Below the pieces are notes generated by a model, which saw only the letters and a program-made list of their open reading frames with translations, made no database searches and was not told the origin of the DNA. From Gammaproteobacteria bacterium (GTDB taxonomy: Bacteria > Pseudomonadota > Gammaproteobacteria > Steroidobacterales > Steroidobacteraceae), in assembly GCA_031382085.1 (NCBI GenBank), contig JANMYM010000036.1:23340-87339 (forward strand): a stretch of 64,000 nucleotides of DNA, written 5' to 3'. This document shows, one piece after another, positions 1 through 64,000 of this stretch; within the stretch, counting starts at the first letter, position 1; each line of letters begins with the position of its first letter. A program made the position numbers and the translations under genes.

Positions 1-857
1 GCTGCAAACCGCGGCGCGACCGGGGTTGCGAGCCGCACGTTAGCCCGTTGCGGCGGCCCGAGCCGCGCAACGATCTCGCGGGTTCGCGCCAGCGCGTGCA
101 GATCGTCTGCGGCCATGTGATCAGCGACACCGGAGATGCGCGTATGCACATCCGCGCCGCCGAGATCTTCCGCCGTCACTTCTTCACCGGTCGCGGCCTT
201 GACCAGCGGCGGTCCGCCGAGAAAAATCGTGCCCTGTTCGCGTACGATGACCGCCTCATCGCTCATCGCCGGAACATACGCGCCGCCCGCAGTGCAACTG
301 CCCATGACAACGGCGATCTGCGCGATGCCATGCGCCGACAGGTTCGCCTGATTAAAGAAGATCCGGCCAAAATGATCGCGATCCGGAAATACTTCATCCT
401 GCCGGGGCAGAAACGCCCCGCCGCTGTCGACCAGGTAGATGCACGGCAAACAGTTTTCGGCCGCGATCTCCTGCGCACGCAAATGCTTTTTCACGGTCAG
501 CGGGTAATACGTGCCGCCCTTCACCGTGGCGTCGTTGGCGACGATTACACACTCACGACCCGCGATCCGGCCGATCCCCGTGATCAGGCCGGCGGCCGGA
601 ACCGGCTCCTCATAGACCTCGAAGGCGGCGAGTTGCGAAAACTCCAGGAACGGCGAGCCGGGATCCAGTAGCGCCGCAATCCGCTCGCGCACGGGCAATT
701 TGCCGCGCTCGCGATGCCGCGCCATCGCCGCCAGCGATCCGCCCGCGGCAATGGCGGCCGTTTTGGCGTTCAGGTCCGCGACCAGGGCCAGCATCCCGGC
801 CTCGCGCTGGCGAAATTCCGCCGACTGCGGCTCAATTTGGCTCGGCAACTGCGACAT
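1..857 (-). CDS. mccB: methylcrotonyl-CoA carboxylase carboxyltransferase (beta) subunit, N-terminal part; runs off the left edge
   Basis: Not in the ORF track because no stop lies in the window. Reverse translation from ATG at 857 gives [26 protein letters not shown]...[33 protein letters not shown]...[19 protein letters not shown], an acyl-CoA carboxyltransferase fold, next to ivd. Plus-strand ORF 48..671 is its antisense shadow. Confidence 0.85.
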
Positions 858-867
858 CGCTATTGCT

Positions 868-891
868 CCGATTATCGGATTGTCCGACAAT
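868..891. promoter_or_regulatory. two back-to-back palindromes in the 40-bp mccB/ivd divergent spacer (candidate operator)
   Basis: CCGATtATCGG (868-878) is immediately followed by ATTGTCcGACAAT (879-891). The second fits the GntR-family operator pattern T-GT-N3-AC-A, and a GntR/FadR-type regulator is encoded just downstream of ivd. Confidence 0.5.
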
Positions 892-897
892 ACTACC

Positions 898-2076
898 ATG
901 AAATCCCAGCCGCGAATTGAACTGGGTCCCGACTTTGCATTGGGCGAGGACCTGGACAGCCTGCGGGACAGCGTCGCGAGGTTCGCCAGCGAGCGTATCG
1001 CGCCGCGCGCCGCGGACATTGACCGCGAAAACGTCCTGCCACGGGACCTCTGGCCGCTGCTCGGTGAGCAAGGCCTGCTAGGCATCACCGTGCCGGAGCG
1101 CTGGGGCGGCGCGGGCCTGGGCTACCTTGCACACATCATCGCGGTCGAGGAAGTCTCGCGTGCCAGCGGCGCTGTGGGCCTGTCCTACGGCGCGCATTCC
1201 AATCTCTGCGTCAATCAGCTGGTCCTGAATGGCAACGATGCGCAACGCGATCGTTACCTGCCGCGGCTGGTCAGTGGCGAGCATGTCGGCGCGTTAGCCA
1301 TGTCCGAATCCGGCGCTGGTTCCGACGTCGTCAGCATGCGCCTCGCCGCCCAAGTGGACGGCGGCTCCTATGTGCTCAATGGCCAGAAGATGTGGATCAC
1401 CAACGGCCCGATCGCCGATGTCGTCATTGTCTACGCAAAAACAGATCCAGCGGCAGGCACGCATGGTATTTCAGCATTCATTGTGGAGCGCGGCACACCG
1501 GGGTTCACCGCCCACCCCGGTCTCGACAAGCTCGGCATGCGGGGTTCCCCCACGGGGGAACTCACATTCGACAACTGCCGCATACCGGCGACCAACCTGT
1601 TAGGTGAACTGCACGGCGGAGTCAGGGTCCTTATGAGTGGTCTCGACTATGAGCGGCTGGTATTGGCCGGCGGCCCAATCGGCCTGCTCGCCGCCTGCAT
1701 CGACCTCGCCCTGCCCTATGCGCGCGAGCGCCAGCAATTCGGCCGGTCGATCGGCGAGTTTCAGCTGATCCAGCAGAAGCTGTCACGCATGTACACCGAG
1801 CTCGCCGCCGCGCGCGCGCTGGTTTATGGCATCGCCCGCGCCTGTGACCAGCGCCGGCCTCAGCGTCGCGATGCCGCAGCTGCAATCTGGTTCGCTGCCG
1901 ACTGCGCAACACGTGCCGCACTCGAAACCATCCAGATCCTGGGCGGCAACGGCTACACCAATGACTTTGCAGCCGGCCGACTGCTGCGCGACGCGAAACT
2001 CTATGAGATCGGCGCCGGCACGCAAGAAATTCGCCAGATCCTGATTGCACGCGAACTGATGGAGGCCGCCGATTGA
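898..2076 (+). CDS. ivd: isovaleryl-CoA dehydrogenase (acyl-CoA dehydrogenase family)
   Basis: ORF 700..2076 trimmed to ATG 898 ([26 protein letters not shown]). Contains ACAD motifs [18 protein letters not shown] and [19 protein letters not shown]. The 5' extension overlaps mccB. Confidence 0.9.
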
Positions 2077-2807
2077 GCGCCACATTCGAACGGATCAACA
2101 CCGGCCCGATCTATCGCCGCGTCGCAGAATCCATTGCCGCGCGCATCACCACCCGCGATCTGACGCCGGGCGAAGCGTTGCCGACCGAGACCGCGCTCGC
2201 CACCAGTCTTGGCGTGAATCGCTCGACGGTGCGCGAGGCGCTGCGGGAACTGGAAAGCCGCCGGCTCGTCGGCCGGCGCGCCGGCAGCAAGCGCATGTTC
2301 GTGATCCGGCCCGGTAATGAAATTCTGGGGGCACAGCTCAGCGATGCGCTACTGCTACACGATGTAACTGTTCACGACGTATGGGAATTGCTGATGCTTT
2401 TGGAGCCGGCTGCGGCAGAACTGGCCGCAAAACGCTGGCGCAAACCGCAGCTCAGGGCGCTCCGGTCCCTGGTCGGGCTGACTGCGATGCAGGGGTCCAC
2501 CGCGGTCGCCATCGCGCATGTCCAGGCTTTTTTTCGCACGCTGGTCGCGGCGAACCAGAACCATGCGCTGGCGCTCGCCCATGAACCCGCGATTCAATTG
2601 TTAGGCTCGTCGCTGGCACTGATGATCGACCGCGTGCCGCAGGCGCGGCAACGCATCGTGACTGCGCAGCTGCGGATCGTCGATGCGATCGCGCGGCGCG
2701 CCCCGCAGGAAGCCAGTGAATGGATGACGCGGCATATTCGCGATTTCCGCCGCGGTTTTGACATCGCCGGCATCGACATTGAACAGCGGGTCAGCCCGCT
2801 GCGCTGA
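2073..2807 (+). CDS. GntR family transcriptional regulator (FadR/FCD-type)
   Basis: N-terminal winged helix [31 protein letters not shown] with an all-helical C-terminal domain. There is a 4-nt overlap with the ivd stop. Confidence 0.85.
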
Positions 2808-5202
2808 TGCGCTGCGCTGTGGTCACTGCGCGTGCCGGAGTCTTGTATAGAGTCGTGCGCTGCTGCGGAAGCCGCCCGATGCTGCGGATTGCGTCGCCGA
2901 GCGTGGCGGCATCCTGTTGCTGGCCATGCACACCACCGGCCGCGCGCGTGATCGATTCATTCATCAGCGTACCCCCGAGGTCGTTGGCGCCGGCCTGCAG
3001 CGCTGATAAAGCGCCTTGAACCCCCATCTTGACCCAGGATGTCTGGATGTTGGGTATCACCGGGTGCAGCACCAGGCGTGCGATCGCATGCATCAGCAGA
3101 GCTTCGCGGAACGACGGCCCGGAACGAGCCCGGCCCTTGCGCCACAGCGGCGACTCCATGTGCACGAATGGCAGGGGTACGAATTCCGTAAAGCCGCCGG
3201 TTTCAATCTGCAGCGCCCTGACTCCTAACAAATGGCGGGCCCAATGGCGCGGCTCATCGACATGGCCGAACATGATCGTCGCCGTGCTGCGAATGCCGAT
3301 CGCATGTGCGGTGCGCATGACTTCGTACCATTGCGAAGTCGTCACCTTGTCGGGACAGATCACCGCCCGCACTTCATCATCGAGAATCTCTGCTGCCGTG
3401 CCGGGCAGACTTGCGAGCCCCGCATGCTTGAGCCGCAGTAAATAGTCGCGCAATGGCAAACCCAGGCTGGTGGCGCCGTGCCAGATTTCCAGTGGCGAAA
3501 ACGCGTGCAGGTGGATCTCCGGCACCGCATCCTTCACGGTACGCGCAATATCGAGGTAGGTGTCGCCCGTGTAGCGTGGATGAATGCCTCCCTGCAGGCA
3601 GACTTCGGTCGCGCCGCGATTCGCGGCTTCGATGGTGCGCACCGCGATTTCAGACAGATCGAGATCGTAGGCCGGTCCGCGCAGCGAATGCGCTGATCGG
3701 CCCTTCGCAAATGCACAGAAGCCGCAGCTGTGCTGACAGACATTGGTGTAATTGATGTTGCGATTGACGACAAAGGTGGTGGCATCACCCACCGTCTCGG
3801 CGCGCAGTCGGTCGGCGGCCTGCAAAATCGTTGTTAGCCCGCGGCCCTCGGCCGCAAACAGGGCTGCGATCTCGTTTTCGCTGAAGCTCTCGGCCAGCGC
3901 CGCTCGCTGTATCAGCTGGTCACGCGCTTTTTGAGTTCCTGGCCCGGGTCTGCCCAAAGCCGCCACGATCTTCGCGGGCGCAGCGAGCCCCGCGCCGGCG
4001 CGCCAGGCATCGGACTGCGCATAGCCGAGGGAGTCCGCGCGCCGCCGGGCTGCGGTTGCCATGACCGGGTCGCACCAGCGATCCGCCTGGCGTGCAAAAG
4101 ACGGCACCAATGCGAGTCGTTCGGTCAGCACCCGGCCCTGCGCCGCGGTCTCGGCCGCCAGCTGTTCCAGATGCGGCCACGGCGCTTCCGGATTCACATG
4201 ATCCGGAGTCACCGGCGAAATGCCGCCCCAGTCATTGAGTCCGGCAGCTAACAGAGGCGCCAGCATTCCCGGGCTCAGGTTCGGCGGCACCTGGATCGAC
4301 ATCTTCGGGCCTAACACCAGGCGCGCGGCAGCAATGCTCCACAGCAGCTCGTCCAGTGGCGCATCAGGCGCACGCCGCATGCGCGTGCCGGGCTTCGCCC
4401 TGAAGTTCTGGATGATAACTTCCTGGATATGGCCATAGCGTTCATGCTGCGCGCGAATCGCAAGCAGCGCCTCAAGACGCTCGCGCCGTGATTCGCCGAT
4501 GCCGATCAGCAGCCCGGTCGTCATCGCGACCTGCGCTTCACCGGCGGCGCTCAGAGTGGCGAGCCGCAGCGCCGGGTCCTTGTCCGGCGCCCGCCAATGC
4601 GCCTGTCCCTTGGCTAACAAACGACTGCTGGCCGACTCCAGCATCAGACCCATCGAGACCGCATGCGGTCGCAGCTTGTCAATGTCCGCAGGCGTCAGCA
4701 GACCCGGATTGAGATGCGGCAGCAGGCCGGTTTCGCGAAACACGGCGGCAGCGGCATCCTGCAGGTAGTCGAGCGTGCGGGCGTGCCCCATGGCTGCCAG
4801 TTCCTCCCGCGCCTGCGAAAAACGCAGCTCGGGCTTGTCGCCCAGCGTGAACAGAGCTTCCTGGCAGCCGGCCCGCGACCCGGCGCGCGCGATTTCCAGC
4901 ACCTGATCCAGTGTCAGGTAGGCGCGCTGCCCAGGTCGCGGTGCCTGCGCGAAGGTGCAATAGCCGCATACATCGCGGCACAGCTGCGTCAGCGGGATAA
5001 AAACTTTGCGCGAATAGCTGACACGACGGCCAAATCCCTGTTCCGCCAGGCGATTTGCGCCCAGCAACATCGGCGTCAGGTCGGCGATATCGGCCAGACC
5101 GTCCAGCGACGGCGCTACGGGTGCGCGGCCCGCAACCCATCCCCGCTCAATCGATTGGACCAACGCTTGCATGATCCGTGCAATTGTAGCGCCCCGGCCC
5201 AT
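2791..5202 (-). CDS. fbiC: FO synthase, fused CofG/CofH (7,8-didemethyl-8-hydroxy-5-deazariboflavin synthase)
   Basis: Carries two radical-SAM CxxxCxxC motifs, CRDVCGYCTF and CQHSCGFCAF, in one ~800-aa protein. The start is uncertain (ATG 5202 or 5172); the ORF-track start 5292 overlaps the neighbouring gene. Confidence 0.85.
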   Translation of the reverse strand: MGRGATIARIMQALVQSIERGWVAGRAPVAPSLDGLADIADLTPMLLGANRLAEQGFGRRVSYSRKVFIPLTQLCRDVCGYCTFAQAPRPGQRAYLTLDQVLEIARAGSRAGCQEALFTLGDKPELRFSQAREELAAMGHARTLDYLQDAAAAVFRETGLLPHLNPGLLTPADIDKLRPHAVSMGLMLESASSRLLAKGQAHWRAPDKDPALRLATLSAAGEAQVAMTTGLLIGIGESRRERLEALLAIRAQHERYGHIQEVIIQNFRAKPGTRMRRAPDAPLDELLWSIAAARLVLGPKMSIQVPPNLSPGMLAPLLAAGLNDWGGISPVTPDHVNPEAPWPHLEQLAAETAAQGRVLTERLALVPSFARQADRWCDPVMATAARRRADSLGYAQSDAWRAGAGLAAPAKIVAALGRPGPGTQKARDQLIQRAALAESFSENEIAALFAAEGRGLTTILQAADRLRAETVGDATTFVVNRNINYTNVCQHSCGFCAFAKGRSAHSLRGPAYDLDLSEIAVRTIEAANRGATEVCLQGGIHPRYTGDTYLDIARTVKDAVPEIHLHAFSPLEIWHGATSLGLPLRDYLLRLKHAGLASLPGTAAEILDDEVRAVICPDKVTTSQWYEVMRTAHAIGIRSTATIMFGHVDEPRHWARHLLGVRALQIETGGFTEFVPLPFVHMESPLWRKGRARSGPSFREALLMHAIARLVLHPVIPNIQTSWVKMGVQGALSALQAGANDLGGTLMNESITRAAGGVHGQQQDAATLGDAIRSIGRLPQQRTTLYKTPARAVTTAQRISAAG

Positions 5203-5237: not shown

Positions 5238-6218
5238 ATGAACAAATTAACTCGCCTTGCGCGACGGGATCTGCTGCAGGGCGCCCTGGCAACGTTTACC
5301 ACAGCGGCGTTGCGTCCATCCCTCTCCTGGGCTGCTAACAACGCAGCAACCGTTACCAAGCCGGTAGGCACGCACGCGGAGCACGTGGCGGTCATAGGTC
5401 TTGGCACCAACCGCTTCCGCCTGGATAAGCGCGAACAGATTCGCCAGGTCCTGCAGCGCATGGCTGAGCTTGGGGGCCAGGTCATCGATACAGCGCCTGC
5501 TTATGGCGAGAGCGAGGAAACACTGGGTGGCGTCATCGCGGAACTTGGCCTGCGCGACAAATTCTTCCTGGCCACCAAGCTAACAGCCGCGGATGCTGGT
5601 GCCGCCAACGCCCTGAGCCCGGCCGCCAGCCTGGAGCGCTCGCTAACCCGGCTCAGGACTGAAAGAATTGACCTGTTGCAAGTCCATAACCTGCAGGGCA
5701 CGGCGCAATTGATGCCTGAGCTGCTGGAGTGGCGTCGCGCCGGCAGGATCCGTTACATCGGACTGACGACATCCCGGACTGCGCAGCACGCGCAGCTGCT
5801 GAGCGAAATGGATCAATACCCGGTCGATTTCATCCAGGTGGATTATTCACTGGGAAACCGCGCGGCAGCCGAGGCGATCTTGCCAGCCGCGGCTGCCAAG
5901 AAGATCGCAGTGCTGGTCAACCTGCCGTTAGGCGGCGGCCGTGGCGCGAATGTTGTCAACCTCGCGGGTACGAGACCGCTGCCGGCATGGGCAAAAAAGG
6001 CCGGCATTGAAACCTGGAGCCAATTTGGCCTGGTCTACGTGACCTCGCATCCGGCCGTGACCTGCGCGATACCTGGCACGACGCAGGCACAGCATCTGGC
6101 AGACAACATGATGGCGGCACGAGTACCGCCCCTGCGCGCGGAAATGCGCAAGCAGATGCAAGAGTTCTGGGACCGCGAAATAGACGGCGGCACTACGGCA
6201 ACGCCGCGCGCCATCTAA
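5238..6218 (+). CDS. aldo/keto reductase with Tat-type signal peptide
   Basis: N-terminus MNKLTRLARRDLLQGALATFTTAAL is a twin-arginine leader. AKR signature IDTAPAYGESEETLG is present. Confidence 0.8.
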   Translation: MNKLTRLARRDLLQGALATFTTAALRPSLSWAANNAATVTKPVGTHAEHVAVIGLGTNRFRLDKREQIRQVLQRMAELGGQVIDTAPAYGESEETLGGVIAELGLRDKFFLATKLTAADAGAANALSPAASLERSLTRLRTERIDLLQVHNLQGTAQLMPELLEWRRAGRIRYIGLTTSRTAQHAQLLSEMDQYPVDFIQVDYSLGNRAAAEAILPAAAAKKIAVLVNLPLGGGRGANVVNLAGTRPLPAWAKKAGIETWSQFGLVYVTSHPAVTCAIPGTTQAQHLADNMMAARVPPLRAEMRKQMQEFWDREIDGGTTATPRAI

Positions 6219-6228
6219 CAAATCGGGA

Positions 6229-7686
6229 TCAGGCCGTCAGAATTGCGGTCACTGCCCGTTCTGCCGTTTCCATCGCCGATTCCATGCCAAATTCCATGCG
6301 CCGCAGGTGTTCGCCCGCGAAATGCACGCACCGCCAGGGTTGATCCATGTTGCGTGCGAATCGGGTCACCTGCCCCGGCGCAAATACATGCTTGTGACCC
6401 GCGATAAACGGCTGCCGGGCCCACGAAAACTGCAAACGTGGCCGCAACTTGCCGCGCGCCGCCGGCCGCATGCGCTCAATTTCCGCGATCACATATTTTG
6501 TTAGCTGATCGGGCGGCAGCTGATCGATACGGTCCGCACCGGTACCGTTGGCCCACACGCGCAGGAATCGAATCGACTTGTCCGGATTCTGTATCGAGAA
6601 CATCCGTTCCAGCGGACCGTCGGTAAACATCGATGGCCCGAAGCCGTCCGCTTCCCAGAATTGCGCGCTGGTCTCCAGGATCACGTGAGTTGTACCGCCG
6701 TAGCGCGCAGCATTGATGGCTTCCGCCTGTGCCGCGGGCAGCTGCGGATAAAACTGCACTCTTTGCAGAGTACTGAACGGCAAGGTGCAGAGCACAAATG
6801 GCGCGCTGTAGCGGCTGCCATCAAGACAGCTGACTTCGGCGCGGCTGTCGCTGCTGTCAATGCGCGTGACAATTTTTCCGGTCCGGACCCGCTCGCCGAG
6901 CTGCGTGGCGAGCGCGCGCGGCAGCGACTCGGCACCGTCGCGAAATGCATAGACAAAGCTGTTGCCACCGTATTGCGATTGTTTCGAGTCCGGCTTGAAT
7001 CCCCCTAACACGGAGCGCGCGAGATCGCGCAGCAACGCCAGCGCCGAGGTTGACTCCAGATCGGTGTAGTCGGTTGCCACGCTCATCAATTCGATAGCGG
7101 CAGGCGAAACCTGTTTGCTGCGCAGAAAATCCGCCGCGGAAATATCGAGACCGGCGTTGCGGTCGTCGAGCCAGGCCGCGACATCGTCGCCGAACGGATT
7201 CAGGCGGCCGAAAATCCGCGATTCAAGCAGGTGCGCAGGAATCTCCCTCTCAGCGCCGACGGTCCTGTTTTCCGGTGCTGCCGGCCAGTCGCTCGCCTTG
7301 AGAGTGCGCCCACCGATGTGATAGCTGAAATCACCGTAGCCGGTTTGCCGCGGACCGAACTTCACCCCGACCCGGTTGGCCAGATCGATGACGCGGCCGT
7401 AATTGCTGCCGAGTTCCGAGGCGCCCAGTTCAAAAATCTGCCCGTCGAGCTTCTCACTGCGCATGCGACCGCCGACCCGCTGACTCGCTTCCAGCACCAG
7501 GACTTTCATCCCCTGATCTGCGAGCAGATAGGCGCCGCCGAGCCCGGCTAGTCCGGCACCTAATACGATGACGTCGGCAGCGTAATCTGCGGCCCAGACC
7601 GGCCGCGCTCGAGCCGCGGCCCCCGTTGCGATTACTGCCGCGGCACCACGCATCGCGCTGCGCCGCGACCAGCCGGCGCTGCTCAT
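6229..7686 (-). CDS. FAD-dependent amine oxidase (flavin monoamine oxidase family), Tat-exported
   Basis: Has the leader SRRSAMRGAAAVIATGAAARA. The dinucleotide fold is VIVLGAGLAGLGGAYLLADQGMKVLVLEASQRVGGR. Confidence 0.8.
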   Translation of the reverse strand: MSSAGWSRRSAMRGAAAVIATGAAARARPVWAADYAADVIVLGAGLAGLGGAYLLADQGMKVLVLEASQRVGGRMRSEKLDGQIFELGASELGSNYGRVIDLANRVGVKFGPRQTGYGDFSYHIGGRTLKASDWPAAPENRTVGAEREIPAHLLESRIFGRLNPFGDDVAAWLDDRNAGLDISAADFLRSKQVSPAAIELMSVATDYTDLESTSALALLRDLARSVLGGFKPDSKQSQYGGNSFVYAFRDGAESLPRALATQLGERVRTGKIVTRIDSSDSRAEVSCLDGSRYSAPFVLCTLPFSTLQRVQFYPQLPAAQAEAINAARYGGTTHVILETSAQFWEADGFGPSMFTDGPLERMFSIQNPDKSIRFLRVWANGTGADRIDQLPPDQLTKYVIAEIERMRPAARGKLRPRLQFSWARQPFIAGHKHVFAPGQVTRFARNMDQPWRCVHFAGEHLRRMEFGMESAMETAERAVTAILTA

Positions 7687-8171
7687 TGGGTGGCGGCCTT
7701 CAGCGCGGCGACAATCTGCAGCCGCTCGGCCGGGTCGGTAATCGGCTTGTAGCGCATGCGATGCTGGCCATCGAGAAATCTGGCAGGATCGGAAATCAGC
7801 TCGGCCACCTTGGCGTCATCCCAGGTCAGGCCTTGCTTGCCCGCAGTCACCACCGCAGCTGAATAATAGAATCCCTTGGCACTGCCGGCGCAGCGGCCAA
7901 ACACGCGGTGCAGGTTGGGACCGACGCCGTGCGGACCGCCCGCTTCGAAGCTGTGACAAAAGCGGCACCACATGAAGTCCTTCTGCGCGTCGCCGGACAG
8001 CTGCGGCATTGCCCCAACGTCGGCGTACTGGTCGACCGTTGCGGTTACACAGTTGTCGACCATCTGGGTCGTGGTCGTGAACGGCACCACACCGAATGTC
8101 CGATACGGCGAATACAATGCTGCCGCGCCTAACACCAGGAACACCAGCGTGTGCAGAATCTGATCTTTCAT
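7683..8171 (-). CDS. c-type cytochrome (membrane-anchored, monoheme)
   Basis: ORF 7683..8531 trimmed to MKDQILHTLVFLVLGAAAL. Contains heme motif CRFCH and GPNLHRVFGR. It overlaps both neighbours by 4 nt. Confidence 0.7.
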   Translation of the reverse strand: MKDQILHTLVFLVLGAAALYSPYRTFGVVPFTTTTQMVDNCVTATVDQYADVGAMPQLSGDAQKDFMWCRFCHSFEAGGPHGVGPNLHRVFGRCAGSAKGFYYSAAVVTAGKQGLTWDDAKVAELISDPARFLDGQHRMRYKPITDPAERLQIVAALKAATQ

Positions 8172-13751: not shown

Positions 13752-13958
13752 GCGCGTCAGTGCCCCCGCTAACAAAATATCTTGCAGACACCCCAACATC
13801 GGACCGGCTGGTGTGGCGTCGATTATCGAATCTCAACCGGGCGCCCGGTTCGCGTCCAAGGTGCCGACCGTACAGTGGACATCAGCTTTTTCAGCGATTA
13901 GAATTAACCTTGGCACACCTGCCTTAACGTTTGAAAAACCACGAGAGTTCCACCACGC

Positions 13959-37765: not shown

Positions 37766-37871
37766 TGAACCGGCCTCTTGATTGAAAAATTACTGCAAGT
37801 GCGGGCGACTTCCGCAATTTCGGGCTGACGATGTTTTTCGCCGACGTCGAAGTGCTGCGACCTAACAAATA

Positions 37872-52326: not shown

Positions 52327-52499
52327 CCCTGCATTGTAGTCGGTACGTGCTGAATTGGCCGCTTTTTTAGCTGTCCGCCCGCCCAAGCTGTGAACTGCTA
52401 ACAAGTACGCGCATTTCATTCACCTGCAGGTCCTGTCGCCGTCATGAGACAGCGGCTGCTGGCGCCTTTTCGCGAGATCGGCGCAATGCTGCGGGAAGT

Positions 52500-52588
52500 T
52501 GGTGCCCCGGGCCGGACTCGAACCGGCACGACCGATTAAGGTCAACGGATTTTAAGTCCGTTACGTCTACCAATTTCGCCACCGGGGC
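52500..52588 (-). tRNA. tRNA-Leu, anticodon UAA (type II, long variable arm, encoded CCA)
   Basis: The reverse complement is GCCCCGGTGGCGAAATTGGTAGACGTAACGGACTTAAAATCCGTTGACCTTAATCGGTCGTGCCGGTTCGAGTCCGGCCCGGGGCACCA. This gives a 7-bp acceptor stem, anticodon stem ACGGA/TCCGT, loop CTTAAAA and T-loop GGTTCGAGTCC. Confidence 0.9.
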
Positions 52589-55189: not shown

Positions 55190-55612
55190 AAATCCATATT
55201 GGCACAAAACGTATTCCCCCAGTTTTGACGGACGCTCGTCTCACGTAGCAACGAATGCCTTGCCAGAGTTTTCGAAACTGGCGCGAAAGTCCTCGATTGG
55301 TACTGCAGCCGCTTGTCTTAAGCCGGCTCACGCAAGGGTTCGAGGTTGTTCCAACGCTCGGGCATATAACGAACAAACACAGGTTGCAGCATGCTCGCGC
55401 CGTTTGCGGGAATGGCAAGAAAAACCTCGTTCTCGGTAAACAACCGTTGTTGTTCATTTGCTCTTGAACGGTCGCAGACGCGGCGCATTTTGTCTCTAAC
55501 AATCCAAACGGTGGCCTCGTCGGTGATGCGTGCGTGAAATGCACGGGTTCGGTACAATTCTGCAACGCGCGTCTGCCGCGCCGAACTGGTCTTTGTGCCA
55601 TAGGAAAACATC

Positions 55613-56660: not shown

Positions 56661-57116
56661 ATGCCACTACAAATCCGCCTGGGCCGTGTTGCGATGGTCA
56701 TCGCCGTCGCACTCGGCGCTTGCACAGCGCGGGCCGCGGACCCACTGGCGCCCTGCGATACCAGTCTTGGCAAACAGGTTTTTGCGCTGTGTAGCGCCTG
56801 CCATGCCCTGCAACCGAGCGAACCTGCACGGGAGGGGCCCAATCTGTTAGGTGTCATCGGCAAAGCGGCCGGGTCGCAAGACAAGTCGTTCAAGTATTCA
56901 CCCGCTCTTGTGGGCGCCAAGTGGCGCTGGGATGCGGCGACGCTCGACAAGTTTCTCACCAATCCGCGCCGCGCATTACCCGGCACAACGATGACCTTTA
57001 TCGGTTTAAAGGCCGCCAATGAAAGAGCAGCCGTAGCTTGTTATCTGCAAGGCGCCGCAGTCATCGGTGAGCGCCGTCAATCACGCGCAAGAAGCACGGC
57101 CCCACCTGTTGGTTGA
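56661..57116 (+). CDS. class I c-type cytochrome (c2-like), secreted
   Basis: Heme motif CSACHAL, plus GPNLLGVIGK and PGTTMTF, the distal Met region. Confidence 0.75.
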   Translation: MPLQIRLGRVAMVIAVALGACTARAADPLAPCDTSLGKQVFALCSACHALQPSEPAREGPNLLGVIGKAAGSQDKSFKYSPALVGAKWRWDAATLDKFLTNPRRALPGTTMTFIGLKAANERAAVACYLQGAAVIGERRQSRARSTAPPVG

Positions 57117-57132
57117 ATGAAGGGAGAACATC

Positions 57133-57789: not shown

Positions 57790-58096
57790 GGCCCAAGGTC
57801 ATGAGCGGGTCTGCGGTCCGCGCGATGCTGGTGCTGTAGTGCATGTACCTCGGCCGATCGAGCTGCAATATTCTTTTGAATTAAAGCCATACTAAAGAAT
57901 CAACTGCTGACACCGTGTGACCGCGATATCGACTCGCAAGGTCTGTCCATCGCAGAGCCAGGCATTAGCCGAAGTTGCCGCAACAGCGTCTACGTACCTG
58001 AATCGTACAATCTAACAAGAGCGGCATCCGCCATTGCGACTCCACCGTCGTAACATAGGCTCCCTATCGACGCGACCATCCCGTTACAGGTATTTT

Positions 58097-58673
58097 TCAG
58101 CGTATCTCCACCGGCCCACTGAACTCAACCTTGTCATAGTCCGTGACAAAAGCATCCACGCCCAGCGTCCACTGACCGGGAATGATCATTCCCTGAACCA
58201 TCGCGTGCCACATGCCCCCTGGCTGCTTGCTGGCCTTGATGCGGATGTCCGAAATACCCGCTGTGGTTAACGAGGGCACGATTTCAAGGTCAGAAAGGTT
58301 ATCTAACACTTGGCCGTCAGTGCCCTTCACGGTCACCATAATCATGTTCTCGCCTGCTTTGCCGGGCGTTAGCTCGTATTGCGCACTATAGCCGTTCGCC
58401 GTTAGCGTGCCGCGCACGCTGGCGTTGGCCGCCATGGCGGCCGCAAAACCACCCGCCGCTGATGGTCTCTGCACAATCGCACGTGGCGGCCGTGGCCTCA
58501 CCCCGTTCCAACGCCGGTGTCAGCCACCATTTGTTAGCGCCCGCAACCACTAACAAGATTGCAAACAGCACGAGCTTGCGAATCAAACCCGTGCCAGAGT
58601 CATTGCCAAACAGATTGTCGATGGTTTGCAACTGCGTCCAGGAGATCACGATACCCGATGCGATACTCCGCAT
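58097..58673 (-). pseudogene. CopD-family copper-resistance membrane protein, C-terminal remnant (frame-shifted)
   Basis: ORF 58386..58673 gives GIVISWTQLQTIDNLFGNDSGTGLIRKLVLFAILLVVAGANKWWLTPAL. It continues in another frame (58097..58501) as a soluble Ig-like C-terminal domain. The N-terminal TM part is absent. Confidence 0.5.
58531..58556. repeat. inverted pair of the window-wide TTGTTAG word
   Basis: TTGTTAGcgcccgcaaccaCTAACAA is two copies in opposite orientation, 12 nt apart, inside the CopD remnant. Confidence 0.6.
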
Positions 58674-59036: not shown

Positions 59037-60338
59037 TCACAACCAACCGCCCTCAAAACCCGCTCGCCGCAACCCACGCACGATGTCGGGGCAGTCCCGC
59101 ATCAATCGCCACGCCAAACCGGTAAGATAATTTTCGATCATCAGGACGATAGGTCCCTGATTGAGCCCGTAATGCCACGGCGACACCCAACAACCATAAG
59201 GGTTGCCGGGCTGTCCAGGGTGGGACGGATTGAACGATGCTTTGAAACCATAGGAGTTGAACTGGGTCAACTTGGCCTGGTGCACGCAATACGCGATCGC
59301 GGGCAGCACAATTTCAGGCGCGAAGGGCAGCGACGCTACCACCGCCCACGGTGCGAGCGTGCCGTCGTCGGGACCGTACGGCACGCCGCGGCCAAGGTAA
59401 TCAAAAAACCGGCGTTCGATGCCGTTAGACTTCAGCGTGGCGGGACCCGGACCCTCGCTCGCAGTAATGCCCCAGCAATGCTCACCGTAGCCGTCGAATT
59501 TTTGCGGGTTATCGATGGCATATTGCTTCTGCACGTAAGTGGCCCGGCGACTGTTTTCGAAATAGTCGATGCCTCTATCGCGCATGAAACGGTCCTGAAT
59601 GCCGCGAAAGTCGATCCAGACATGCGATAACTGATGTGTGAACAGGGGACCGGCGTACAGATATTCCTGTCCATAACACCTTTCCCACCGGTAAGTGGAG
59701 GCCCAGCTCACGTAGCTCGATTCGGGCAGCGGATGGGTTGGCGATCCTAACGCCAACACATACAGCAACAGCGCTTCGTCGTATCCCTCCCATCGGTATT
59801 GGAGAAAACCGCCTTCGGGTCTCCACCCGTGCGTCACGGTGGCCCCACCGTCCTGCGCCCACGGCCAATCGGCGCGTCGATACAGTGCGTCGGCGAGGCT
59901 GCGAATTTCACGTTCGTTAGCCGTGTTAGCGTCAAAATAGCTCGCTGCCAGCAAAGCCCCGGCCAGCAGAAAAGCGCTGTCCACCGTCGACAGTTCGCAT
60001 TGCCAGGCGCGACGGCCGCTCTGCATGTCGAGAAAATGATAGTAAAACCCCCGGTAACCGGTTGCGTCCGGCTCAGGGCCTTGCGGGCTATTCCAGAAAA
60101 ACCGCAGCGTCGCCAGCGTTCGTTCAACGGCCGCGGTTCGCGTCATGAATCCGCGTTCGACGCCGACCGGGTAGCAGGCCAACGCAAGCCCAGTGGCGGC
60201 AATGCTCGCCGGCCAGTCCGCTGCAGTCTTGTCGACCACGAGACCGTTAGCAGGATTTGTTTCATGCAGGAAGTATTCGAATGTTTGGCGCTGCAGGTGT
60301 TCCAGCTCGGCATGACCCGTTAGTGCCGTGCCGCTCAT
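59037..60338 (-). CDS. glucoamylase-family/(alpha/alpha)6-barrel glycoside hydrolase-like protein (beta-1,2-glucanase-like)
   Basis: QRQTFEYFLHETNPANGLVVDK...YRGFYYHFLDM...STVDSAFLLAG...EGYDEALLLYVLALGSP. Confidence 0.65.
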   Translation of the reverse strand: MSGTALTGHAELEHLQRQTFEYFLHETNPANGLVVDKTAADWPASIAATGLALACYPVGVERGFMTRTAAVERTLATLRFFWNSPQGPEPDATGYRGFYYHFLDMQSGRRAWQCELSTVDSAFLLAGALLAASYFDANTANEREIRSLADALYRRADWPWAQDGGATVTHGWRPEGGFLQYRWEGYDEALLLYVLALGSPTHPLPESSYVSWASTYRWERCYGQEYLYAGPLFTHQLSHVWIDFRGIQDRFMRDRGIDYFENSRRATYVQKQYAIDNPQKFDGYGEHCWGITASEGPGPATLKSNGIERRFFDYLGRGVPYGPDDGTLAPWAVVASLPFAPEIVLPAIAYCVHQAKLTQFNSYGFKASFNPSHPGQPGNPYGCWVSPWHYGLNQGPIVLMIENYLTGLAWRLMRDCPDIVRGLRRAGFEGGWL

Positions 60339-60943
60339 GGATTAGACGCAGGGGCGCTGTCGCGCGTTTCGTTCCACGCGTGAATGACAGGCTCTGTCCA
60401 ATCATGGTCATAGCCCAGGCGACTCAAAGACGCCGTCGTGAGCAGCAACCGGCGAGCTTCGATTGCGGCGAGACCAATCCAGCGCACCGCAATGAGTCGC
60501 AGAATTTCCCGGTGTGCGACGAGCAGCGCATCGTCGCCTCGCGCGCGAATTCCTGCGATTACGCGATCCGCGCGCGCCGCCACCGCTTCCAGCGTCTCGC
60601 CACCAGGACAACCGTCACGAAAGAGGCTCCATCCGGGTCGCTCTGCTTGGATATCGACGGTGCGTCTACCTTCGTACGCGCCGTAGTGCCATTCCATCAG
60701 ATCTGCGTCGTCCACGACCAATGCCGCCGGCATCGCGAGTTCGGCCGTGCGGCGCGCGCGTTGCAGTGGACTCGAGAAAACGCAGTCGAAATTCAATTTG
60801 GAGAGACGCGGGCCAAGCTCGCGCGCGTGTCGTTCGCCTTGCTCGGTCAGCGGCAGATCGGTACGACCGGTGTGCTGCCCGGTGAGCGTCCACGCAGTTT
60901 CGGCGTGACGCACGAGGTAGACCATCGGCGATGACTGACTCAC
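60335..60943 (-). CDS. histidine phosphatase family protein (phosphoglycerate-mutase-like)
   Basis: VYLVRHAETAWTLTGQHTGRTDLPLTEQG is the RHG motif. Confidence 0.8.
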   Translation of the reverse strand: MSQSSPMVYLVRHAETAWTLTGQHTGRTDLPLTEQGERHARELGPRLSKLNFDCVFSSPLQRARRTAELAMPAALVVDDADLMEWHYGAYEGRRTVDIQAERPGWSLFRDGCPGGETLEAVAARADRVIAGIRARGDDALLVAHREILRLIAVRWIGLAAIEARRLLLTTASLSRLGYDHDWTEPVIHAWNETRDSAPASNP

Positions 60944-60962
60944 TATAATTTCACCTTAGGAA

Positions 60963-63347
60963 TCACGTTGGCTTGCCCGGCTTGGCAACACCCCATTTCC
61001 AATCACGAATTTCAGGCATGTCCTGACCATGTTCGTTGATGTATTTCTTGTGCTCGAGCAACTTTTGCTGGAGCCTCTGCTGCAGCAGCAGGCCGTTGGC
61101 GCCTGTCTGCGGCAGGCGCTCAATCGTGTCCATCACCAGATGAAAGCGATCCAGATCATTAAGCACGGTCATGTCGAAGGGTGTGGTGATGGTGCCTTCT
61201 TCCTTATAGCCGCGGACATGGATGTTGATGTGGTTGGTGCGCCGGTAAGTGAGCCGGTGGATCAACGAAGGGTAGCCATGGAAAGCGAAAATGATCGGCT
61301 TGTCGGTGGTGAAGATCGCATCGAAATCGGCGTCGCTCAGTCCATGTGGATGCTCGGTTTGCGGCTGCAGCTTCATCAAGTCGACGACGTTGACAGCACG
61401 AATTTTCAGATCCGGCAAATGTTCTCGCAGGATGGAGACGGCGGCGATTGTCTCCAAGGTGGGCACGTCACCGCAGCAGGCCATCACCACATCGGGCGCA
61501 TCGCCCATATCGTTGCTAGCCCACGGCCATATGCCAATCCCTGCGCGACAATGCCTAACAGCGGACTCCATGCTTAGCCACTGAGGCGCCGGGTGTTTGC
61601 CTGCGATCACCACATTGACGTAGTGGCGGCTGCGCAGGCAGTGATCCATCACCGACAGCAGACAATTGGCATCGGGCGGCAGATACACCCGCACGATCTC
61701 AGCCTTTTTGTTCATGACGACATCGATAAAGCCGGGATCCTGGTGCGTGAAGCCGTTGTGATCCTGACGCCACACGTGTGAGGCCAACAGGTAATTCAGC
61801 GAGGCGATTTTCCGCCGCCATGGCAATTGCGAGGTGACCTTCAACCACTTGGCATGCTGGTTGAACATCGAATCCACGATGTGGATGAATGCCTCGTAGC
61901 AGTTAAAGAGTCCGTGCCGGCCTGTTAGGAGATAGCCCTCGAGCCAGCCTTCGCATTGGTGCTCGCTGAGCATTTCCATCACGCGCCCGGTGGGCGCCAG
62001 AAATTCGTCATTCGGCTCGATTGCGGCATTCCATTGGCGTTGAGTCACGTCGAACAGCGCTTCCAGCCCGTTGGACAGTGTCTCGTCGGGACCGAACACG
62101 CGGAAATTCCGCTGCGCGCTGTTGAGCTTCACGACATCGCGTAGGAATTGTCCCAGCACATGCGTGTCGCCGATGCCGCGCAGACCCGGGGCAGCCACAT
62201 CGACCGCGTAGTCGCGAAAGTCCGGCATGGCCAGGTCGCGCAGAAGCATGCCACCGTTAGCGTGGGGGTTCTTACCCATACGCCGATCGCCGGTGGGTGC
62301 AAGCTCGGCCAGTTCCGGTCTCAGGCAGCCCCGTGCATCGAAAAGCTCTTCCGGACGATAGCTTCTCAACCAAGTCTCAAGTTGCCGCAAATGGTCAGCG
62401 TTTTTCGTGGGATCCGACAGCGGCACTTGATGCGAGCGAAACGTCCCCTCGTTAGGCCGGCCGTCAATGACTTTGGGTCCGGTCCAGCCCTTAGGTGAAC
62501 GGAGGATGATCATGGGCCAGCGCGGACGCGCGGCTTTGCCGTTAGTGCGAGCATCACTCTGGATTGTCTGGATCTGCTCCATCGCCATGTCGAGCGTTGC
62601 GGCCATGGCTTCGTGCATCAGATCAGGGTCGTGGCCTTCGACGAAGTAAGGCGTCCACCCATAGCCGCGAAACAGCTGTTCCAATTCCTCGCGCGTGATG
62701 CGGGCCAGCAGCGCTGGGTTCGCAATCTTATAGCCGTTGAGATGCAGGATCGGCAGCACTACACCGTCGGTGACAGGATCCAGAAACTTGTTAGAGTGCC
62801 AGGCTGTCGCTAACGGCCCGGTTTCGGCCTCGCCGTCGCCGACGACACAGGCAACAACAAGGTCCGGATTGTCAAAAACGGCGCCGAACGCATGGCTCAA
62901 CGAATAGCCCAGCTCGCCGCCCTCGTGGATCGAGCCCGGGCACTCGGGTGAGGCGTGGCTTGGAATTCCGCCGGGAAAGGAAAATTGCATGCAAAGCTTG
63001 CGTAGCCCGGCCTCATCCTGCGTGATGTCAGGATAAATCTCGCTGTAAGTGCCTTCAAGGTAGGTGTTACCCACGACCGCCGGTCCGCCGTGCCCCGGGC
63101 CGGAAACGTAAATCATGTTCAGATCAAATTTCTTGATGATCCGGTTCAGGTGAACGTAGATGAAGTTCTGACCTGGGGTCGTGCCCCAATGCCCGAGCAG
63201 CATGGGCTTCACGTCGGCGACTGTCAGCGGTCGCTTCAGCAGCGGATTGTCGTAAAGATACATCTGGCCGACGGACAGATAGTTGGCGGCGCGCCAATAC
63301 GCGTCCATCTTCTGCCGCAGTTCGCGTGTTAGCACTTGGGTTTTCAT
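60963..63347 (-). CDS. xfp: phosphoketolase (xylulose-5-P/fructose-6-P)
   Basis: A 794-aa protein containing [56 protein letters not shown] and [12 protein letters not shown]. Confidence 0.95.
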
Positions 63348-64000
63348 AGTTCAATGATCTTACATACCGACCTTGCGATCATGAGTTCTTCGTCGGTTCT
63401 GATAACTCGTACAGCCACAGGATTTGTTGTCGGCGAGATCACGGCTGCATTGACCGCGTTACCTGGCGTGTCCAGAGTGATGCCGAGGAAACCCAGACCC
63501 TTGCAGATACGCTCACGGACGCGCGGCGCGTTCTCACCGATGCCACCCGCGAATACCAGGGTGTCCAGGCCACCGAGTGCAGCGGCGAACGAACCAATCC
63601 ACTTTTTGGTTTGATAACAAAAAAGCGCCACCGCTTCGGCGGCGCGCGAATCGGTCGCTTCAAGTTCGAGCAAATCGCGCATATCGGAACTGGTCTCGGA
63701 AACACCGAGCAGTCCCGATTCGTTATTTACCAGGTTCTGCAATTGGGCAGCAGTCATTTTTTCGGTGTGTGTGAGGTAATACATGAGTCCCGGATCCAGA
63801 TCACCCGACCGCGTACTCATCATCAGTCCAGCGGTCGGAGTGAAACCCATGCTGGTATCAATGCATTTGCCGTGGCGAACGGCCGCCAGACTTGCGCCGT
63901 TGCCAAGATGCGCCAGGATCACGCGGCCGTTAATAGCCGCCGAGTCTCCCATGCGCGCAAGCTCTTCCATTTGAAACTGATAGGACAAACCATGAAAGCC
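63344..64000 (-). CDS. ackA: acetate kinase, C-terminal part; runs off the right edge
   Basis: GFHGLSYQF...[42 protein letters not shown]...[10 protein letters not shown]. There is a 4-nt overlap with the xfp start. Confidence 0.85.

Follow-up and report, generated by a model that had tools for sequence, protein, structure and literature searches.

The hexamer TGTTAG is a hyper-abundant, positionally conserved DNA word in one clade of uncultured Steroidobacteraceae

The window analysed here is a stretch of 64,000 bases from a gammaproteobacterium of the Steroidobacteraceae (contig JANMYM010000036.1, assembly GCA_031382085.1). With a self-trained codon model, 57 open reading frames (ORFs) were called in it, covering 92.6% of its length. 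The genes are those of ordinary metabolism and include a bifunctional FbiC, an acyl-CoA dehydrogenase, an electron transfer flavoprotein (ETF), aldehyde dehydrogenases, MFS/TRAP transporters, the ccmA-H operon and a phosphoketolase. The subject of this work is a short asymmetric word, TGTTAG (CTAACA on the other strand), which is scattered through these genes and the spacers between them. At least one copy in the slightly wider form YGTTAG is present in 50 of the 57 called ORFs, and copies are spaced 630 bp apart on average, or 465 bp when every YGTTAG is counted.

Machine counting on both strands gave 142 copies of GTTAG/CTAAC, 99 of TGTTAG/CTAACA (36 on the plus strand and 63 on the minus strand), 44 of TTGTTAG and 20 of the 8-mer TTTGTTAG, exactly the figures that an earlier note on this DNA had reached by hand. 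Its counts of the sister words were equally sound, with 38 copies of CGTTAG/CTAACG, a weaker form of the word (about 37 by hand), 4 of AGTTAG and 1 of GGTTAG (about 4 and about 1); its tally of about 19 CTAG sites became 20, and nineteen of its twenty 8-mer coordinates were right, 39736 being really 39737. The GC content, taken there as about 65%, was measured as 61.9%, at which a zero-order model expects 16.1 copies of TGTTAG, 3.1 of TTGTTAG and 0.6 of TTTGTTAG. Under an order-2 Markov model the expectation for TGTTAG is 7.7 against the 99 observed (13-fold, z ~33), making it the top outlier among all 6-mers, and in a maximal-order Markov model the 6-mer accounts for the counts of the 7- and 8-mers. 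The base on the 3′ side is G or C in 86 of the 99 copies, in line with the "almost always" of the earlier note. In a logo built from 271 GTTAG copies of the window and its relatives, the total information is ~12 bits and is found only at Y-G-T-T-A-G, plus a weak preference for T at −1 and −2 and for S (G or C) at +7. The core of the word is YGTTAG, with T favoured over C; the flanking T (−1) and S (+7) add to it more weakly. A longer repeat or a miniature inverted-repeat transposable element (MITE) was also considered and is ruled out, there being no flank conservation outside −2 to +7 in the logo.

The earlier note had held that codon usage is insufficient to produce this pattern, and the codon-aware tests bear it out. 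When synonymous codons were shuffled inside each gene, with the protein sequences and the per-gene codon counts held fixed, 8.9 ± 3.0 sense copies of TGTTAG were expected against 68 observed (7.6-fold, z = 20), and 1.9 ± 1.3 antisense copies against 23 observed (12-fold, z = 15.7). The gene calls divide the GTTAG copies into 83 read as NNG-TTA-G, 18 as CTA-ACN, 24 as NCT-AAC and 4 as GTT-AGN, which agrees with the frames assigned by hand. There are 107 TTA codons in the window, of which 66 stand in xTG-TTA-G and 17 in xCG-TTA-G. In the main sense frame, xTG-TTA-Gxx, 65 of the 232 peptide-compatible sites are occupied, with 7.0 expected from independent codon usage; the same comparison gives 12 of 130 (0.33 expected) for the antisense frame CTA-ACA, 11 of 42 (1.29 expected) for the antisense frame xCT-AAC-Axx, and 2 of 142 (0.8 expected) for the sense frame xxT-GTT-AGx, which is scarcely used because it requires three disfavoured codons. 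The two remaining frames of the word would make a stop codon. Occupancy in six related loci is nearly the same, with 26% for xTG-TTA-G, 9.8% for CTA-ACA, 30% for xCT-AAC-A and 2.7% for xxT-GTT-AGx. Outside the called ORFs the density of TGTTAG is 1.8 per kb, equal to that inside, and sense, antisense and spacer copies share the flanking preferences (T at −1, S at +7). Since the enrichment extends over three frames, both coding orientations and non-coding DNA, the signal sits in the DNA and neither in mRNA nor in protein, fitted into genes through synonymous choices as had been proposed from the sequence. Four copies had also been placed on stop codons; the one at 6215 is a full TGTTAG, and those at 23600, 42155 and 45717 read CTAAC(T/G) and match at the GTTAG level only.

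The cumulative GC skew declines monotonically across the window, which suggests that the whole of it lies on a single replichore. The occupancy of xTG-TTA-G sites is 19/68 (27.9%) in genes of the plus strand and 46/164 (28.0%) in genes of the minus strand, and occupancy of the antisense frames is likewise equal for the two sets of genes (Fisher P ~0.8). The 3:1 excess of sense copies described in the earlier note is real, and it largely reflects the number of peptide-compatible sites available in each orientation. The leading-strand bias beyond gene orientation that characterizes Chi, the FtsK-orienting polar sequences (KOPS) and the architecture-imparting sequences (AIMS) was not found in this one window, occupancy being equal in all frames. 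The absence of chromosome-strand polarity argues against a polar word, and the likening to Chi made in the earlier note did not hold.

The distribution of the word among lineages was followed with two of the window's proteins. A scan for FbiC, with one genome per GTDB species, returned 80 loci. The closest belong to metagenome-assembled genomes (MAGs) of Gammaproteobacteria/Steroidobacteraceae, namely L001 and L002 (88% amino-acid identity), L005 (84%) and L003 (74%), and these four loci carry 1.5–2.4 TGTTAG per kb. The remaining 76 loci, many of them GC-matched and one of the low-density ones a gammaproteobacterial MAG at 63% identity, have 0–0.13 TGTTAG per kb, except for L058, a short 9-kb locus with 3 copies (0.33 per kb). 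In 332 kb of GC-matched outgroup DNA, TGTTAG occurs 3.3 times per 100 kb as against 155 times in the window, a 47-fold difference, and CGTTAG is 10-fold enriched over the same kind of DNA. Among the relatives found through CcmF, L084 (93% identity), L081 and L082 (87%) and L088 (81%) carry 1.5–2.3 TGTTAG per kb, and L083, L085, L087 and L089 (72–74%) carry none. TGTTAG is lineage-specific: it belongs to one uncultured clade of the Steroidobacteraceae (Gammaproteobacteria), whose genes carry (T)TGTTAG(S) about once per 650 bases on both strands. The hosts come from soil, freshwater or glacier streams and are uncultured and without known competence. No alternative hyper-abundant 6-mer, or 'dialect', was found in the nearest word-free relatives L083, L085, L087 and L004.

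One lineage stands between the two groups. L086, a 22-kb locus of a Steroidobacteraceae MAG with 72% CcmF identity (GCA_041395625.1, JAWLAE010000002.1), has an intermediate density of 0.46 TGTTAG per kb, mostly in the form TTGTTAG and with no CGTTAG. Its nucleotide identity to the window is no higher than that of the word-free lineages, and 4 of the 5 word copies in its ccm region lie at non-orthologous positions. This suggests that L086 built up the word independently or acquired its driver recently.

Within the clade the individual copies are kept in place. The window is collinear over ~15 kb with L001 and L002 (87.5% nucleotide identity) and with L003 (74%), and the orthologue alignment that the earlier note had recommended puts word sites above phase-matched control 6-mers in all three: L001 keeps 20 of 24 window copies (11.5 expected), L002 keeps 20 of 24 (11.0 expected) and L003, at its 74% identity, still keeps 14 of 23 (3.9 expected). 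In the ccm region all 20 window copies are retained by L084, and L081 has 9 copies in common with the window together with 7 private ones. At least one orthologous spacer copy is common to L001 and L002. The copies are held in place while gain and loss go on. At window sites the word-free outgroups mostly have TGCTGG or TGCTCG, with Leu encoded by CTG or CTC; therefore a gain takes two substitutions and leads to TTA, the rarest Leu codon. Some alternative alleles, TGTCAG or TGTCGG, correspond to a Ser/Leu replacement. In 14 of 23 pair comparisons, which are not independent of one another, at least two positions separate a motif from a non-motif allele, versus 32% in control 6-mers (P = 0.0055), and this suggests that one-off intermediates are short-lived.

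The spacing of the copies is also not random. In the window it is more even than expected by chance (coefficient of variation 0.74 vs 0.985, P ~2e-4). Under a null model of compatible sites, gaps shorter than 200 bp number 14 against 23 expected in the window (P = 0.008). Five related loci pooled repeat the result, with 14 such gaps against 41 expected; close neighbouring copies are penalised. Around the word itself, several transition neighbours of TGTTAG are 1.4–2.9-fold enriched and others are at or below the outgroup level, and none of the 18 single-substitution neighbours shows the depletion that a source word for a ratchet like very-short-patch (VSP) repair would have. As separate observations on related words, TGTTAA/TTAACA is absent from the window (~2 copies expected), and GGTTAG, TTTTAG and TGTTAC are rarer there than in GC-matched outgroups, at counts too small for interpretation.

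How was such a word written into genes, and for which reader? The main route was a change of Leu CTG or CTC to TTA where the preceding codon ends in TG and the next one begins with G, and the equivalent choices CTA-ACA and xCT-AAC-A put the word on the other strand. TGTTAG now fills ~28% of the peptide-compatible sites of its main frame. The copies outlast the synonymous sites around them by far and occur in both orientations, with neither the chromosome strand nor the direction of transcription making a difference. A word that is orientation-neutral, gained against codon preference, retained, and penalised in close copies points to a sequence-specific DNA-handling protein; we infer from the sequence data that TGTTAG is a candidate recognition site of a protein reading double-stranded DNA regardless of direction. 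Such a reader would profit from one site per few hundred bases. The reading that we tentatively prefer, and consider quite possible, is that DNA uptake or homologous recombination uses TGTTAG as a self-recognition word, which spreads by molecular drive. Word-bearing fragments would be preferentially taken up or recombined, so that the word would spread and be replenished at existing sites, and a second copy on one fragment would add little, which would lead to even spacing. Recognition may, speculatively, hinge on methylation of the single adenine, the fifth base of TGTTAG, an arrangement known from asymmetric 6-bp motifs of adenine methylases. A more specific form of this proposal is rather doubtful: an as yet undescribed, sequence-specific system for DNA uptake or recombination in uncultured Steroidobacteraceae might use TGTTAG as its uptake or self-recognition sequence, one that would be unusually short, asymmetric and possibly read through methylation of its only adenine, with a specificity that could move between lineages, the last feature being suggested because the accumulation in L086 is disjunct and non-orthologous.

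The closest analogues of a self-recognition word are the uptake signal sequences (USS) of Pasteurellaceae (AAGTGCGGT / ACAAGCGGT) and the DNA uptake sequences (DUS) of Neisseriaceae (GCCGTCTGAA and its dialects) (PMC1939737, PMC3630211, PMC2817400). Like TGTTAG, they have a density of ~1 copy per kb, are restricted to a single lineage, occur in both orientations without replication polarity, use few favoured coding frames, are kept among related species, and are spaced more evenly than at random; TTGTTAG without CGTTAG in L086 is a possible counterpart of their dialects. In USS and DUS systems competent cells favour DNA that bears the word, and there is a receptor such as ComP. Hyper-abundance, positional conservation and non-random spacing are combined in USS and DUS and also in the highly iterated palindrome HIP1 of cyanobacteria (PMC1939737, PMC5861425). 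Several points nevertheless weigh against uptake or recombination as the explanation. At 6–8 bp and ~12 bits, TGTTAG is much shorter than uptake sequences of 9–12 bp plus flanks. Inverted pairs of the terminator type, typical of USS and DUS, are rare, only 2 convergent pairs within 40 bp occurring in 187 kb; for the one close inverted pair of the window, at 58531–58556, folding was not significant (z = −1.26), and a hairpin predicted elsewhere in that stretch pairs other bases. Graded drive on mismatched forms has been reported for USS and DUS (PMC1939737), whereas one-mismatch variants of TGTTAG are mostly not enriched, staying at ≤3-fold with CGTTAG alone reaching 10-fold. The window has no competence, restriction-modification or recombination gene, and neither there nor in the related 20-kb loci was a competence, pilin, methylase or recombination gene found that could be tied to the word. 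In addition, polarity was checked in one 64-kb window with the direction of replication inferred from GC skew, and the allele-distance test suffers from the dependence among pairs mentioned above.

The same signature could also arise without uptake, and HIP1 (GCGATCGC) offers two precedents. It is 15–300-fold over-represented, is conserved within and between ORFs, and shows a periodicity of 10–90 kb (PMC5861425). TGTTAG, at 13–47-fold, resembles it in being hyper-abundant at ~1 copy per gene, independent of codon usage and of peptide or RNA function, kept within and between ORFs, and non-randomly spaced; for HIP1, too, the function was unknown at discovery, and links to a methylase and to uptake have both been proposed. 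The difference is that cognate methylases are known for HIP1, a palindromic octamer, whereas TGTTAG is an asymmetric hexamer or heptamer with no known methylase. A regularly spaced anchor for chromosome architecture or a nucleoid protein, each copy kept by direct selection, is how Xu, Lawrence and Durand interpreted the like signature of HIP1 (PMC5861425), and positional conservation well above phase-matched controls, even spacing with short gaps under-represented, neutral orientation and equal density in genes and spacers would all fit it. The reader would then be an abundant DNA-binding protein peculiar to the lineage, and the copies would be kept through their part in chromosome function. 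We regard such an anchor as unlikely for TGTTAG, since no candidate protein is known, a 6–7 bp asymmetric site would be unusual for an architectural protein, and the disjunct, non-orthologous copies of L086 need a specificity that arose or was transferred twice. For HIP1 a methylase ratchet has also been put forward (PMC4390886), and a recent study connects HIP1 with uptake and transformation (bioRxiv 10.64898/2026.06.24.733823). In a ratchet of this kind, after Elhai's HIP1 model or very-short-patch repair at Dcm sites, a methylase recognising TGTTAG and a mismatch-specific repair activity would together convert near-matches and restore mutated copies, leaving a word without function; repair back to the word would give positional conservation too, and the VSP-repair excess of CCWGG in E. 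coli illustrates how a methylase site could be enriched with no function of the site itself. With its A at position 5, TGTTAG has the shape of 6-bp asymmetric adenine-methylase motifs such as those of the bacteriophage exclusion system BREX and of Type III/IIG enzymes, and its disjunct, non-orthologous occurrence in L086 is in keeping with a gene that moves horizontally, for example a methylase. However, the single-transition neighbours show no depletion, with TGTTGG, TGCTAG and TGTCAG all at or above outgroup density; gains from CTG or CTC take two substitutions, alleles at least two changes apart are found oftener than in controls, and the deficit of short gaps is not predicted. The CCWGG excess in E. 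coli is small, and VSP-type effects there are weak by comparison. A ratchet appears decidedly unlikely. As for a restriction-modification site, the avoidance expected of a restriction target is not seen, TGTTAG being enriched.

Chi (e.g. GCTGGTGG in E. coli), KOPS and AIMS are likewise short, asymmetric, over-represented words placed through codon choice; known Chi sequences are 5–8 nt long, and 64% of the TGTTAG copies lie on the G-rich, presumably leading, strand. A Chi-like word recognised by RecBCD or AddAB, or a polar guide word of the KOPS kind, enriched for protecting the cell's own DNA or steering its processing, is nonetheless very unlikely, because the strand excess is fully explained by gene orientation and site availability, with equal occupancy in every frame and no polarity beyond gene orientation, and because a 13-fold (Markov) or 47-fold (outgroup) enrichment with 28% occupancy is far above what is known for Chi. 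An effect at the level of translation, through TTA codon context or codon pairs, TTA-based regulation or selection for off-frame stops, might be argued from the 83 of 107 TTA codons that stand in YG-TTA-G, from the presence of a tRNA-Leu(UAA) gene, and from the fact that one strand of the word contains TAG and the other TAA. It is hardly credible, since it would predict a single sense frame or all stop-containing neighbours, whereas antisense frames and spacers are enriched, the reverse complement 12-fold in two frames without a TTA codon, and density outside genes is equal. Among the NTTAG words GTTAG alone is enriched (222 vs 15.7 per 100 kb), with ATTAG, CTTAG and TTTAG at the outgroup level, so stop-codon content cannot be the target. 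Hidden-stop (ambush) selection is ruled out by this result, and codon usage or codon-pair bias by the synonymous shuffle together with the antisense-frame enrichment. Finally, the earlier note had allowed for deliberate recoding or an artefact of the sequence source. All that speaks for an artefact of assembly or sequencing, a chimeric bin or synthetic recoding is the oddness of the pattern in a single window, and the probability of such an origin is negligible: orthologous copies occur in MAGs and contigs of independent projects (NCBI, ENA, JGI) at 72–88% nucleotide identity, those at 87% and 74% being enough to dismiss the suspicion, and lineage-specific gains and losses are visible.

TGTTAG joins the hyper-abundant conserved genomic words. 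Few such words have been described (USS, DUS, HIP1, Chi), and each led to a sequence-specific DNA transaction with a part in shaping gene flow and the evolution of genomes. No description of the TGTTAG word was found in the full-text literature, only primers and unrelated matches, and literature on Steroidobacteraceae together with uptake or methylases yielded nothing relevant. The word overrides codon preference, turning CTG into the rarest Leu codon TTA, and sometimes costs a change from Ser to Leu. Should it serve to mark DNA for uptake or recombination, soil and freshwater bacteria would be added to those with sequence-biased gene flow, and TGTTAG would provide a handle for transforming them; under the uptake reading, this clade would be a further independent watermark lineage after Pasteurellaceae, Neisseriaceae and possibly the cyanobacteria. 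If its role is instead architectural or linked to methylation, it would be an asymmetric counterpart of HIP1 and would help to decide the function of such words. In practical terms, its presence gives a sharp taxonomic signature that helps in binning and in detecting foreign DNA in the clade.

Copies of TGTTAG and associated features in the window, with strand and reading frame
Feature	Position	Strand	Context
CCTGTTAGG	1598..1603	+	sense xTG-TTA-G, ORF 700-2076(+)
ATTGTTAGG	2599..2604	+	sense xTG-TTA-G, ORF 2073-2807(+)
TTTGTTAGG	3225..3230	-	sense xTG-TTA-G, ORF 2791-5292(-)
GTTGTTAGC	3832..3837	+	antisense CTA-ACA, ORF 2791-5292(-)
TCTGTTAGC	4248..4253	-	sense xTG-TTA-G, ORF 2791-5292(-)
GGTGTTAGG	4311..4316	-	sense xTG-TTA-G, ORF 2791-5292(-)
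TTTGTTAGC	4614..4619	-	sense xTG-TTA-G, ORF 2791-5292(-)
GTTGTTAGC	5335..5340	-	antisense xCT-AAC-A, ORF 5238-6218(+)
GCTGTTAGC	5580..5585	-	antisense CTA-ACA, ORF 5238-6218(+)
TTTGTTAGA	6215..6220	-	on TAA stop of ORF 5238-6218(+)
TTTGTTAGC	6499..6504	+	antisense CTA-ACA, ORF 6229-7686(-)
CGTGTTAGG	7005..7010	-	sense xTG-TTA-G, ORF 6229-7686(-)
GGTGTTAGG	8129..8134	-	outside called ORFs, region of overlapping ORFs
CTTGTTAGC	8723..8728	+	antisense xCT-AAC-A, ORF 8703-9926(-)
ATTGTTAGG	9008..9013	+	antisense xCT-AAC-A, ORF 8703-9926(-)
GGTGTTAGC	10306..10311	-	sense xTG-TTA-G, ORF 9923-11293(-)
TTTGTTAGC	10945..10950	-	sense xTG-TTA-G, ORF 9923-11293(-)
TTTGTTAGC	11242..11247	-	sense xTG-TTA-G, ORF 9923-11293(-)
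ATTGTTAGC	11532..11537	+	antisense xCT-AAC-A, ORF 11308-12822(-)
TGTGTTAGC	11961..11966	-	sense xTG-TTA-G, ORF 11308-12822(-)
GCTGTTAGC	12268..12273	+	antisense CTA-ACA, ORF 11308-12822(-)
GGTGTTAGC	12666..12671	-	sense xTG-TTA-G, ORF 11308-12822(-)
TCTGTTAGC	13368..13373	+	antisense CTA-ACA, ORF 12819-13799(-)
TTTGTTAGC	13769..13774	-	sense xTG-TTA-G, ORF 12819-13799(-)
ATTGTTAGG	14154..14159	-	antisense CTA-ACA, ORF 13959-14783(+)
TCTGTTAGG	14876..14881	+	sense xTG-TTA-G, ORF 14821-16404(+)
CGTGTTAGG	15350..15355	+	sense xTG-TTA-G, ORF 14821-16404(+)
GGTGTTAGG	17274..17279	-	antisense xCT-AAC-A, ORF 17225-18166(+)
GGTGTTAGC	17445..17450	+	sense xTG-TTA-G, ORF 17225-18166(+)
GCTGTTAGG	17544..17549	+	sense xTG-TTA-G, ORF 17225-18166(+)
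TTTGTTAGG	18500..18505	+	sense xTG-TTA-G, ORF 18238-19431(+)
CTTGTTAGC	19085..19090	+	sense xTG-TTA-G, ORF 18238-19431(+)
TTTGTTAGC	20897..20902	+	sense xTG-TTA-G, ORF 19888-21612(+)
CTTGTTAGG	21158..21163	+	sense xTG-TTA-G, ORF 19888-21612(+)
GCTGTTAGG	21648..21653	+	sense xTG-TTA-G, ORF 21359-23182(+)
GATGTTAGG	21912..21917	+	sense xTG-TTA-G, ORF 21359-23182(+)
TATGTTAGG	22944..22949	+	sense xTG-TTA-G, ORF 21359-23182(+)
AGTGTTAGC	23341..23346	+	spacer, ORFs 21359-23182 / 23600-24613
CGTGTTAGG	24190..24195	-	sense xTG-TTA-G, ORF 23600-24613(-)
CTTGTTAGA	25602..25607	-	sense xTG-TTA-G, ORF 25150-26700(-)
GCTGTTAGC	27604..27609	-	sense xTG-TTA-G, ORF 26693-28225(-)
GATGTTAGG	28281..28286	-	outside called ORFs
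GTTGTTAGG	28772..28777	+	antisense xCT-AAC-A, ORF 28491-29540(-)
AATGTTAGT	29435..29440	-	sense xTG-TTA-G, ORF 28491-29540(-)
TTTGTTAGC	29746..29751	-	sense xTG-TTA-G, ORF 29465-30940(-)
ATTGTTAGC	30553..30558	-	sense xTG-TTA-G, ORF 29465-30940(-)
GTTGTTAGT	30694..30699	-	sense xTG-TTA-G, ORF 29465-30940(-)
CTTGTTAGC	31591..31596	-	sense xxT-GTT-AGx, ORF 31527-32246(-)
TCTGTTAGG	32719..32724	-	sense xTG-TTA-G, ORF 32246-32959(-)
ATTGTTAGC	33082..33087	-	sense xTG-TTA-G, ORF 33047-34558(-)
GGTGTTAGC	33205..33210	+	antisense xCT-AAC-A, ORF 33047-34558(-)
CGTGTTAGG	33787..33792	-	sense xTG-TTA-G, ORF 33047-34558(-)
CCTGTTAGG	33847..33852	-	sense xTG-TTA-G, ORF 33047-34558(-)
GGTGTTAGG	33976..33981	-	sense xTG-TTA-G, ORF 33047-34558(-)
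GGTGTTAGA	34938..34943	-	antisense CTA-ACA, ORF 34467-35678(+)
CCTGTTAGC	35428..35433	+	sense xTG-TTA-G, ORF 34467-35678(+)
TTTGTTAGT	35825..35830	-	antisense CTA-ACA, ORF 35693-37204(+)
TTTGTTAGG	37862..37867	-	5′ end of ORF 37215-37868(-), doubtful ORF extension
ACTGTTAGG	39197..39202	+	sense xTG-TTA-G, ORF 38695-39402(+)
CTTGTTAGT	39437..39442	-	sense xTG-TTA-G, ORF 39399-40118(-)
TTTGTTAGG	39737..39742	-	sense xTG-TTA-G, ORF 39399-40118(-)
CGTGTTAGC	40925..40930	-	antisense xCT-AAC-A, ORF 40063-40959(+)
CCTGTTAGC	41116..41121	+	sense xTG-TTA-G, ORF 40959-42158(+)
TCTGTTAGC	41800..41805	+	sense xTG-TTA-G, ORF 40959-42158(+)
TTTGTTAGG	42124..42129	+	sense xTG-TTA-G, ORF 40959-42158(+)
CTTGTTAGG	42236..42241	-	sense xTG-TTA-G, ORF 42177-43544(-)
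GATGTTAGG	43612..43617	-	sense xTG-TTA-G, ORF 43541-44908(-)
TCTGTTAGC	43978..43983	-	sense xTG-TTA-G, ORF 43541-44908(-)
GCTGTTAGG	44521..44526	-	sense xTG-TTA-G, ORF 43541-44908(-)
TCTGTTAGG	44722..44727	-	sense xTG-TTA-G, ORF 43541-44908(-)
GTTGTTAGG	45429..45434	-	sense xTG-TTA-G, ORF 44818-45705(-)
GGTGTTAGG	46373..46378	-	sense xTG-TTA-G, ORF 45717-46751(-)
GGTGTTAGG	46451..46456	-	sense xTG-TTA-G, ORF 45717-46751(-)
TCTGTTAGC	47143..47148	-	sense xTG-TTA-G, ORF 46748-47179(-)
TTTGTTAGG	47613..47618	-	outside called ORFs; inside uncalled ORF 47176-47874
TGTGTTAGG	48344..48349	-	sense xTG-TTA-G, ccmF 47718-49667(-)
TTTGTTAGG	48803..48808	-	sense xTG-TTA-G, ccmF 47718-49667(-)
TTTGTTAGC	49244..49249	-	sense xTG-TTA-G, ccmF 47718-49667(-)
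GGTGTTAGG	49280..49285	-	sense xTG-TTA-G, ccmF 47718-49667(-)
GGTGTTAGG	50086..50091	-	sense xTG-TTA-G, ORF 49664-50122(-)
TTTGTTAGC	51106..51111	-	sense xTG-TTA-G, ORF 51032-51697(-)
AATGTTAGC	51200..51205	+	antisense CTA-ACA, ORF 51032-51697(-)
TCTGTTAGG	51265..51270	-	sense xTG-TTA-G, ORF 51032-51697(-)
TTTGTTAGC	51514..51519	-	sense xTG-TTA-G, ORF 51032-51697(-)
TCTGTTAGC	51876..51881	-	sense xTG-TTA-G, ORF 51694-52419(-)
CTTGTTAGC	52398..52403	-	close to 5′ end of ORF 51694-52419(-), doubtful ORF extension
tRNA-Leu(UAA)	52500..52588	-	directly upstream of ccm operon; decodes TTA codons made by the word's main frame; given for context
GATGTTAGT	52951..52956	-	sense xTG-TTA-G, ORF 52664-53329(-)
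CTTGTTAGC	54164..54169	+	antisense xCT-AAC-A, ORF 53322-54698(-)
ATTGTTAGA	55496..55501	-	spacer or doubtful ORF
TCTGTTAGG	56845..56850	+	sense xTG-TTA-G, weak ORF 56661-57116(+)
CTTGTTAGA	58012..58017	-	spacer
AGTGTTAGA	58303..58308	-	sense xTG-TTA-G, ORF 58097-58501(-)
TTGTTAG-N12-CTAACAA	58531..58556		only close inverted pair in window; spacer
TTTGTTAGC	58532..58537	+	spacer; left arm, inverted pair
CTTGTTAGT	58550..58555	-	spacer; right arm, inverted pair
CGTGTTAGC	59924..59929	+	antisense xCT-AAC-A, ORF 59037-60338(-)
GCTGTTAGG	61555..61560	-	sense xxT-GTT-AGx, phosphoketolase ORF 60963-63347(-)
CCTGTTAGG	61923..61928	+	antisense CTA-ACA, phosphoketolase ORF 60963-63347(-)
CTTGTTAGA	62789..62794	+	antisense xCT-AAC-A, phosphoketolase ORF 60963-63347(-)
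CGTGTTAGC	63327..63332	+	antisense CTA-ACA, phosphoketolase ORF 60963-63347(-)

Some genes of the window deserve mention in their own right. The bifunctional FbiC (F420 / FO synthase CofGH, 2791–5292, minus strand) is encoded here in a gammaproteobacterium, and its nearest homologues outside the clade (55–64% identity) belong to Actinomycetota, Chloroflexota and Alpha/Betaproteobacteria, which suggests an old horizontal transfer. The gene appears fully assimilated because its 5 copies of the word represent normal density. At 7683–8782 on the minus strand, two ORFs in different frames, 7683–8531 and 8168–8782, overlap each other; neither has a Pfam match, and the copy at 8129 lies in this region.

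Towards the right end of the window, the ORF at 58600–58953 (minus strand, 117 aa) has a match to just the N-terminal portion of an MFS transporter and resembles the remains of a truncated gene; next come the spacer with the inverted word pair and an unannotated 134-aa ORF at 58097–58501 (minus strand). The segments 54700–58100 and 63344–64000 have low coding scores, lower GC and few or no TGTTAG copies, and the ORFs 55613–56647, 56661–57116 and 55089–55601 have no Pfam matches. These two segments may be more recently acquired DNA.

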